A DNA stretch of 64,000 nucleotides from Myxococcota bacterium (lineage in GTDB: Bacteria; Myxococcota_A; UBA796; UBA2385). The stretch spans positions 1-64,000 of the forward strand of contig JBIJDH010000029.1 of the NCBI GenBank assembly GCA_044344255.1. Reading direction: 5' to 3'. Below the pieces are notes generated by a model. The model had not been told where the DNA came from, ran no database searches, and saw only the letters and a list, made by a program, of their open reading frames with translations. Positions 7,866-17,918 of this stretch are shown piece after piece. Within the stretch, counting starts at the first letter, position 1, and each line of letters begins with the position of its first letter. A program made the position numbers and the translations under genes.

Positions 7866-10800
7866 TCAGGCGATGGAGCGGAGGGATGGGGAGGAAGCGG
7901 CGGCGACCGGGGCCCCGGCGCGCAGGAGCGTCGTCGCGACCACCTTATCCCCCGAGGCGTCCCCGACGGGAGGCCCGCCGGAGCCCGCGGTCGGGAGGCC
8001 GGTCAGGAGGGCGCCGACGGGCCCGCCACCTTGCTCTTCGTGGAGGCGCAGCGCCTCGCCGTGCAGGCGCACGGAGGCGCGGCGACCGACGAGGCCCAAA
8101 ACCTCAACCTCCCGGGGGTGCACCCTCATCCCTGCCCCGAGGGCCTTCTGGATGGCCTCCTTGACCGTCCACACCGCGGTCTCCAGCCAGGGGTCTCGGG
8201 CGGTGAGCGCGCGCTCGCCCTCGGTGAACCAGTCCTCGGCGAAGCTCGGCGCGCGGAGGCGCACGACCTCCTGGTCGATGCCCGGCCGACCGCCGAAGAC
8301 CGCGACGGCGAGGGCCTCGCCGTCGGTGTGGGTGATGCTCACCGCAGGGGCAGGATCGATCCCCGTCACCTCTGGGGCGCCGCTCGGTCGGCTGCGCAGG
8401 ACGAAGTCGGCCTCCCCGAGGAGCCCCTCCACCGCGGCGCGGGCCGCTCGCCGCCCCGCGCGGCGATCGGCCTGCCGGGAGGGGGTGCCACGGCGGCGGA
8501 TCTCCGCCTCCTCATCGGGGTGCAGGGCCTTGAGCTCACCGCCCCCGCCCGCCTTGGTGGTGCGGCCGATCACCGCCCGCGGCCAGCCACCCTCGGGGAC
8601 GGGGAAGGCGTCGCCCGGGGGCAGGGGCCCGGTGTCGATCATGTGGAAGCCGCGGAGCCGCAGCACCGCGCGGCCACCCCCATCGACGTCGACGTCGTAA
8701 GCGCCGTCCTTGCGGGTGCTCACCATGATGCCGAGCCGGCTGTCGTCGGCCGCGAGGCGCTCCCAGCGCAGCGACTCGATGCGGCTCGGCAGAGCCATGA
8801 AGCCCGCCACCGCCATCCGGTGCAGGCCGGCCGCCTGGAAGGCCGCCTCCAGCACGAGCGGGGCGGTGAGCAGCGGGCCCCCGAAGGCGACGTGGTTGAC
8901 CTCGGCGTCGGCGAGCAGGCCGTCCACCGCGATCGCCGAGGCGTCGCTCAGCACCTGGAAGAGCGGGCCGTGGAAGAAGCGGGCGTAGATCGAGTCCCGA
9001 TCGATGGGGTCCTCGGCGAAGAAGGCCGCCGGCAGCGCCGCGATGGGGCTCGCCTCGCCGAGCAGCAGGGTGGCGCGGAAGTGCTCGGTGCGCAGCATGC
9101 GGCCGGTGCGCGCCAGGCGCTCCGAGGAGAGGGTGACGAGGACGCCGCCCCCATCGGGCTCCGCGCGCAGGATGAGCTCGACGGGGTCGTCGCGGTGCAC
9201 CTTGACCGGCGCGAGGAAGCGCACGTCTTCGGCGCCCACGAGGGCCTGCCCCGGGCGGACCAGCGTGGCGGCGGCGGCCATCAGCTCGAGGCCGATGACG
9301 CCGGGCAGCACGGGCACCCCGCCGATGGCGTGGTGGCCGATCCAGGCGTCCCGCTCGAGGGTGAGCCGGCGCCGCGCGATGACCGTGTCACCGTCGAGCT
9401 CCGCGTGATCGAGCAGGGGGTGGAGGGCGGGGACGGTGAAGTCACCCATCCGGCCGGCCACCACGAGCTCTCCGGTGACGCCGCCCACCACGAGGTCGAC
9501 CAGCAGCCCCGCGCCGGCCCCCGCCGGCAAGAGCTCGACGCCCCGCTCGGTGAGGAGGCGCTCCATGCCGCCGCGCACCGCCATGCCGACGTCGGCCCAG
9601 GCCGTCCAGTCCACGTGCAGCGCGCCGCTGCGGGACAGGCAGGCGCGGGCCATCGCCTCGTTGGCGGCCGAGTAGTCCACCTGGCCGGCGTTGCCGAAGC
9701 GGCCGGCGACCGAGCCCATGCTCACGAAGAAGGCGTCGCGCTCGAGGCCGCGGAGCAGCGCCATGCCGCCGAGCGCCTTGCCGTCAAAGACCCGATGAAA
9801 GGCCTCGAGGTCCTTGTCGGGGAGCAGGCGGCTCTCCTCCACCCCCGCGCCGTGGATCACGCCGTCGATCGGGCCATGCTCATCGCGGATCTGCTGCAGC
9901 GCTCGCTGGACGGCGGCGCCGTCGGCCAGATCGCAGAGCAGGGTGCTCACCTCGGCGCCGAGCGCGCGGAGCCGGGCCACCGTTCGGCGGGCCTCCTCGG
10001 CGGCGCGCAGCGGCTTCAAGCGGGCCTCGATGCGCCCGGGGGTAGCACGGCCGCCGCCGGCCTCCAGCTCGGCCTTGATGTCGGCCTTGGCGAGGGCCTC
10101 GACCAGCGGCTCTTCACCGGGGGCGGAGCGCGCCAGGAGCACGAGGCGGAGCGGACCGCGGGAGGCGAGCTCGAAGGCAACCTCGGCGGTGATGCCGCGG
10201 GTGCCGCCGCTCAGCACGATCAGGCTGTTCGGTCGCAGCCCACCGCCCGCCGGCGGCAGGGGCTCGGAGGCCAGCGTGATGACCCGGCGGTGATCTCCGT
10301 CGAGGTAGACCTCCACCGCCCCGTCGAGCGCGCCGAGCTCCCCCACGAGCAGCCGCGCGGCCGCGTCATCGGAGAGCATCGGGTCGAGATCGACCACCCG
10401 GGCCAGGGTGCCGGGCCACTCCCGCCCGAGCGCCTTGCAGAGGCCGGCCCGCGCGCCGCTCGTGAGCGCGAGCTCCGGATCGGACCAGGAGGGGTCGGCG
10501 CCGAGGCGGGTGGCACAGAGCCAGTGCCGCGGCCGCTCTGCGTCGAGGGAGCGCGCGATCTGAAAGCCGGTGAGGACGTCGGTGGAGAGGTCGATGACCA
10601 CGTCCACCTTGCCGGACAGGGCGGCGCCCCGCCCCTGGAGCTCGGCGCGGAGGGCCGTGGCGAAGGCGCCGTCCCCCAGCACCTGAACGACGAGGCCGCC
10701 GAGCTCGCCGCGTCGCGGGAAGATCGCGCGGGGGACGAGCACCGGGCGCCGCAGCCGGAAGCCGGCCGGCAGCACCTTCCGCGGCGGCTCCGCGAGGGGG

Positions 10801-17918: not shown

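Follow-up and report, generated by a model that had tools for sequence, protein, structure and literature searches.

The window, i.e. the whole stretch of 64,000 nucleotides analysed here, corresponds to contig C5 of an 8.18 Mb genome assembly with a completeness of 95%. It carries a Type R-like megasynthase gene on the minus strand (7866..17918). The reading frame is open throughout from 18035 to 7866 and would yield 3389 amino acids if started at the TTG at 18035; the start codon is likely the ATG at 17918 (residue 40 of the longer frame, with GGAG upstream), resulting in a protein of 3350 residues. Directly downstream, also on the minus strand, lies a GNAT gene (7216..7848) which is syntenic in the lineage. 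A role for it as a dedicated release enzyme is unsupported: GNAT was found in 26 of 31 genomes, several of them without an intact synthase, and because it is present also where the synthase is missing or decayed, it is probably no dedicated part of the synthase system. On the plus strand, a 747-aa ORF (4275-6518) combines an N-terminal DUF455 (ferritin-like) domain with a pre-ATP-grasp/ATP-grasp-like region. The host genome (G000) also encodes two modular PKS frames of about 7000 residues (listed at C17:138304-181259 and on C15), and its FAS II genes comprise AcpP and FabF on C36 and a FabZ-type gene on C18. C51:5521 was tried as FabF and rejected, as it is the KS of a type I PKS; the FabF of this genome is C36:328381.

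Domains were called using Pfam (two KSs, AT, PP-binding, KR, PKS-type DH and 4'-PPTase) together with motif positions, and all lie on the minus strand. The protein starts with a FabK-fold barrel without the catalytic His, likely a pseudo enoyl reductase (ER; 17136..17918), which is homologous to barrel 1 of archaeal relatives and for which PDB matches are to FabK. It is followed by a type I/PfaA-like KS1 (15690..17102; C525-H659-H700), a malonyl-type AT (14436..15368; GHSLG and HAFH), ACP1 (14001..14201; Thr1309, codon ACG at 14109-14111), which many relatives do not have, and a FabF-like KS2 (12171..13562; C1701 in NAAC, H1849 in SHET and H1889 in TGH). Next come ACP2 (11691..11894; Thr2078, ACT), ACP3 (11349..11552; Thr2192, ACC) and ACP4 (10962..11165; Thr2321, ACC), a KR (9456..10748) with an NAD(P)H-binding motif and catalytic Tyr2788, a PKS-type double-hotdog DH (8616..9428; H2902/E3063) and, fused to it, an Sfp-type 4'-PPTase (8037..8507) in which D3254, E3256, W3289, K3292 and E3293 are intact. 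The two KSs, AT, PP-binding domains, KR, DH and PPTase of the original prediction are thereby confirmed at these positions. Its description of the synthase as self-contained is overstated, because all that is left of the N-terminal ER is a barrel lacking the His, and a release domain is missing, Pfam finding no thioesterase in the megasynthase. Pfam also finds no acyl-AMP ligase among the neighbours scanned and no PfaBC-type or PfaD-type gene among the 14 neighbouring ORFs scanned; the predicted absence of PfaBC and PfaD thus holds for these ORFs, but pfa-like synthase genes exist elsewhere in the genome, on C26, C41, C48, C58 and C4.

This layout matches that of the Type R secondary lipid synthases of Shulse & Allen 2011, given in the available text of that paper as KS-MAT-CLF-ACP3-6-KR plus a PPTase, with no product assigned and with Roseiflexus, Solibacter, Koribacter and Elusimicrobium as hosts (named members YP_001277223, YP_824341 and YP_001875990; PMC3098273). 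As in Type R, the window has a single pfaA homologue in which KS, MAT, a second KS fold, ACPs and KR follow one another in the same order, and a downstream PPTase with the motifs x(G/D)xP and hShxH, here SGAP and VSITH. It differs from Type R in adding the His-less FabK barrel, an extra ACP (ACP1) between AT and KS2, and the fusion of the PPTase at the C terminus. Proteins of Roseiflexus sp., other than those under the paper's accessions, have the same layout and match the window protein at 52% for KS1, 51% for AT and 54% for KS2. The designation of the second KS as a CLF does not apply, Cys-His-His being kept in 81 of 81 aligned copies; in our reading, which is based on the copies aligned here rather than on the members named in the paper, CLF would be a wrong label for the family and not a reason to exclude it from Type R. 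By its sequence, then, the window gene is Type R-like, and its layout has been known since 2011. The novelty of layout implied in the original prediction is not borne out, while its statement that the product is uncharacterised agrees with Type R itself having no known product. No mention of a DH, of archaeal members or of Thr carriers occurs in the available text of the Type R paper (PMC3098273), and no follow-up characterising Type R or the archaeal family was found among the literature titles and abstracts surveyed, which were supplemented by passages of PMC7852524 and PMC13343975.

Two further systems were also compared. With the PUFA synthases (PfaA-E) the window protein shares a PfaA-like KS1, an AT, tandem ACPs, a KR, a PKS-type DH and the presence of two active KSs in one iterative system. 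It departs from them in scoring 935 against the PfaA model TIGR02813 (cut-off 1010) and in having no KS-CLF pair, FabA-type dehydratase or linked PfaD; these are absent from the megasynthase and the neighbours scanned, and the PF07977 and PF03060 matches of the genome are on other contigs. The original prediction is supported in that the layout is not that of PfaA. The ACP motif differs too, reading GIDTVKQAE in the window and GIDSIKRVE in the PfaA-like proteins of the host genome. Like the Pks13 condensase, the window protein combines KS, AT and several ACPs in one type I chain, but it scores 463 against the Pks13 model (cut-off 2100), possesses KR and DH, has no thioesterase and carries a malonyl-type AT. 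Thus, neither the model score, nor a thioesterase, nor a linked acyl-AMP ligase points to Pks13.

At least 563 family stretches were confirmed in GTDB genomes, and 3718 family proteins were found at E<=1e-100 among 7999 scored candidates. Among the best 80 of the at least 563 stretches, every contig of sufficient length again shows the order KS1-AT-KS2-ACPn-KR-DH, and hosts are labelled as Myxococcota, Chloroflexota, Actinomycetota, Rhodothermales, Poseidoniales, Heimdall-/Promethearchaeota and one Bathyarchaeia, these labels being taken from records of which several are plainly mistitled. Closer to the window, KS2 has a strong single-copy orthologue in 20 of 30 sampled relatives (47-78% identity). 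Carriers amount to 30 of 41 genomes in an even sample of Poseidoniales, 7 of 61 in the phylum of a Heimdallarchaeota-labelled (Asgard) carrier and 5 of 91 in an even sample of Chloroflexota, centre genome included in each case; because the counted genomes are related, their carriers are not independent occurrences, and the archaeal genomes among them are incomplete MAGs. No FabZ/FabA was over cut-off in 25 carriers, and we considered whether the synthase replaces bacterial FAS II. This was rejected because the controls contradict it: 46 of the 91 Chloroflexota do have FabZ/FabA, among them 4 of the 5 carriers, which have FabZ, and the host genome of the window has AcpP, FabF and FabZ-type genes.

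Acyl-CoA carboxylase genes adjoin many loci, the carboxyltransferase next to the synthase scoring highest with a model of the methylmalonyl/propionyl-CoA type, and an alpha/beta hydrolase flanks 5 archaeal loci. By sequence, the archaeal loci L036, L040, L041 and L089 hold a complete KS-AT-ACP-KR-DH-ER set: besides tandem FabK barrels, the two KSs, AT, ACPs, KR, DH and PPTase, they have carboxylase subunits and an alpha/beta hydrolase, which makes up the whole of an acyl-chain pathway. L036, though labelled Bathyarchaeia, groups with a Heimdallarchaeota record. In Nonomuraea gerenzanensis (L101:10923-24761, from a record filed as a plasmid though 11.85 Mb long), a synthase with one ACP, bearing Thr, is followed by a fused acyl-CoA carboxylase and a PPTase-like gene. 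Second-copy KS2 homologues in short frames of 499 and 552 aa were seen in the Asgard-centred sample (G197:C8:519586-520914 and G148:C1:136688-137557) and are possibly stand-alone KS2 proteins. A distant relative, P0301 (4041 aa), shows by eye apparent tandem FabK barrels and a degenerate third KS between KS1 and AT. Four relatives have decayed open-frame copies beside the same GNAT (L091:6027-11543, L092:13553-17005, L093:2286-5834 and L100:3-2792), in which KS1, AT, PPTase, the KS2 Cys and the ACP Thr were lost together while KR and DH shells persist in frames of 1150-1840 aa; these are possibly repurposed pseudo-enzymes.

We then asked what kind of enzyme KS2 is. As mentioned above, its Cys-His-His triad is invariant, and the KS1 triad is likewise kept in 61 of 61 copies with enough coverage. 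The closest solved sequences to KS2 are FabF (E 1e-28), and a structure model (pLDDT 90.8) has FabF as its best PDB folds (TM 0.76-0.80). KS2 thus resembles FabF, a type II KAS II, in closest sequences, folds and triad, but identity in structural alignments is only about 25%, KS2 is embedded in a type I protein and SHET replaces AHGT; together with SHET, the motif AGFGSQ, present in 81 of 81 copies, is specific to the family. A quick tree (60 rows, SH-aLRT without bootstrap, with the host genome's own KSs as references) places KS2 as a long-branch clade (2.65 changes per site) beside type II KSs with a support of 89 and KS1 with type I KSs, the same host groups appearing in the KS1 and KS2 clades. 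Together, the triad, the FabF-like fold and the position in the tree indicate that KS2 is probably an active enzyme of separate origin and not a CLF, in line with the original prediction that it is no chain-length factor.

For the role of KS2, that prediction had offered either head-to-head condensation of two acyl chains or a second elongation phase. According to the former, KS1 with KR, DH and ER would build chains which KS2 would join in the manner of Pks13 or OleA, the Thr carriers still being functional; the product would be a branched beta-keto acid, a mid-chain ketone, an alcohol or a wax precursor. The long branch of KS2, its family-specific SHET and AGFGSQ motifs and the lack of an AT of its own speak for this role, and the adjacent carboxyltransferase of methylmalonyl/propionyl-CoA type could accept longer acyl-CoAs. 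The single AT is, however, malonyl-type (HAFH in 66 of 71), KS2 resembles elongating FabF rather than FabH/OleA-type enzymes, and the Pks13 score, the missing thioesterase and the lack of an acyl-AMP ligase among the neighbours scanned all count against it, so that we regard head-to-head joining as unlikely. A second elongation phase fits better, given a malonyl-type AT, an intact KR and DH, and the reductases of FabK, FabI or acyl-CoA dehydrogenase type that occupy the ER slot of relatives.

The carriers themselves are unusual. All four ACPs of the window read EADLG(I/V)DTVKQAE, with Thr at the position of the phosphopantetheine serine (T1309, T2078, T2192 and T2321); GXDT thus stands in place of GXDS in 4 of 4, and in alignments with solved ACPs, among them those of PigH and mupirocin, this Thr occupies the place of the DS serine. 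The original prediction had overlooked this substitution. Across the family, 227 of 234 carrier motifs have Thr, with all four Thr codons in use, and 7 have Ser, these motifs coming from 79 of 90 loci by a pattern that allowed any residue at the site and that leaves carriers with decayed flanks uncounted. The same holds for 347 of 347 motifs in Chloroflexota-type proteins (116 of 120 proteins) and for 18 of 18 motifs in distant representatives (4 of 150, read by eye). As a control, 38 of 38 other carrier domains in the host genome have Ser.

A PPTase, either fused or encoded next to the synthase, occurs in 55 loci, and most PPTase-less loci end early; in two of them, L053 and L054, a carboxylase gene occupies the remaining flank. 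The PPTase residues R, H, D, E, W, K and E are the same in 54 of 54 Thr-type copies. A PPTase residue marking Thr specificity was sought and none emerged, the conserved residues being common to the two ordinary PPTases of the host genome. In two MGII-labelled loci, L062 and L085, every ACP has Ser within an otherwise unaltered motif, and their PPTases alone have lost His3236, replaced by S or T, a residue that ordinary PPTases have; this loss probably represents a single event. In archaeal carrier genomes, all incomplete MAGs, the synthase ACPs are the only PF00550 matches in 14 of 15, the linked PPTase is the only PF01648 match in 5 of 5, and the two KSs of the synthase are the only substantial PF00109 matches in those 15; one archaeal genome holds a stand-alone carrier of 82 aa. 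Retention of an intact PPTase where its only substrates bear Thr is best explained by priming on Thr, which we consider fairly likely; the joint loss of PPTase and ACP Thr in the decayed copies speaks for it as well.

A different possibility is that the Thr carriers are unprimed and serve as structural or docking domains, the enzyme using CoA thioesters or a separate carrier primed in trans. E. coli ACP is described as no longer accepting 4'-phosphopantetheine once it carries S36T (PMC3340395, as far as that source is available), and therefore Thr may disable a carrier; likewise GXDS has been called common to all ACPs (PMC6619796, in its available text). Other carriers are at hand, with 38 Ser carriers in the host genome and the 82-aa carrier in one archaeal genome. 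Against this, the site holds only Thr or Ser in 234 motifs, with all Thr codons in use, an intact and linked PPTase persists even where other carriers were looked for and not found, the two all-Ser MGII loci have the rest of the motif in common with the others, and the ACPs are multiplied in tandem as in working PUFA synthases. Unprimed carriers thus appear distinctly improbable. No paper on threonine-linked phosphopantetheine was found in searches of mostly open-access full texts; what is new here is Thr at the carrier sites, of which subscription papers may hold earlier notice.

We next turned to the N-terminal barrel, which had been called ER-like. The His of the FabK GGH motif is catalytic. 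The window domain has the TIM-barrel fold of FabK, so that the likeness stands as to fold, but it has GGP in place of GGH, and the His is likewise missing in 33 of 34 aligned first barrels; a single first barrel (L032:5783-6538) retains it (RGNECGGHSN). Four full-length archaeal copies start with two FabK-type barrels, the second of which has GGHIG whereas the first is without the His. In hhalign comparisons, the window domain matches barrel 1 at 97% and barrel 2 at 5%, and no significant trace of barrel 2 came up when the window lineage was searched for one. An active cis ER in the window copy was therefore rejected: it matches the His-less barrel 1, and the His-bearing barrel 2 is missing. 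Because its ER is likely inactive, the window copy falls short of a one-gene type I FAS with KS, AT, ACP, KR, DH and ER in one chain.

In other branches of the family the ER slot is filled differently. Of 22 MGII-labelled loci, 19 have a FabI-like gene upstream, and of 10 Chloroflexota/Actinomycetota/Rhodothermales loci, 9 have an upstream acyl-CoA dehydrogenase gene, which is fused in P0097. That three unrelated reductase types occur in this slot argues that the family makes reduced chains. The host genome of the window has candidate trans reductases of the NMO/PfaD-family and FabI-like types, none of which could be tied to the window copy as a dedicated ER. The absence of an active FabK barrel might suggest that the product in the window lineage is unsaturated and polyene-like, or that the gene is heading to decay, as might the decayed copies next to this GNAT in 4 of the 6 relatives without intact KS2 that were checked. 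Both are very improbable given that catalytic residues are kept in all other domains, that KS2 is single-copy with 47-78% identity in 20 of 30 relatives, and that the candidate reductases could act in trans.

The reading to which we give somewhat better than even credence is that of a Type R-like, iterative, fatty-acid-type megasynthase with Thr-primed carriers, in which two KSs share the elongation of one long acyl chain. With Thr at all four carrier sites, the built-in PPTase likely attaches the phosphopantetheine to Thr, and this would separate them from the Ser-ACP systems of the cell. The single AT would load malonyl onto the tandem ACPs. The PfaA-like KS1 and the FabF-like KS2 may then take different phases of chain length, possibly including the first condensation, by analogy with the PUFA synthases, for which split roles of two KSs are stated (PMC13291983, in the text available). 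KR and DH would process every round. Since this copy no longer has an active FabK barrel and lacks a thioesterase, enoyl reduction and chain release would fall to other genes. The predicted product is a mostly reduced long acyl chain, which in the host bacterium would be an accessory lipid, since FAS II is present there.

The two-KS layout by itself was already known. Ser-linked phosphopantetheine is treated as a rule, and Ser-to-Thr serves as a control to inactivate E. coli ACP; if true, the use of Thr with a co-inherited PPTase throughout a large natural family would break this rule and offer engineers an orthogonal ACP/PPTase pair. Nonomuraea gerenzanensis, a cultured carrier with a single Thr-ACP, makes the question of the product testable. 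Fatty-acyl lipid synthesis by the archaeal groups concerned is described as unproven (PMC7852524, in the part available). On balance, we lean towards Type R being a widespread type I FAS family that works on phosphopantetheine linked to Thr by its own PPTase, a natural orthogonal pair; on this same reading most marine group II and some Asgard archaea would have no other carrier-dependent acyl-chain synthase, which would make it a candidate source of their fatty acyl chains, bearing on the mixed-membrane question.
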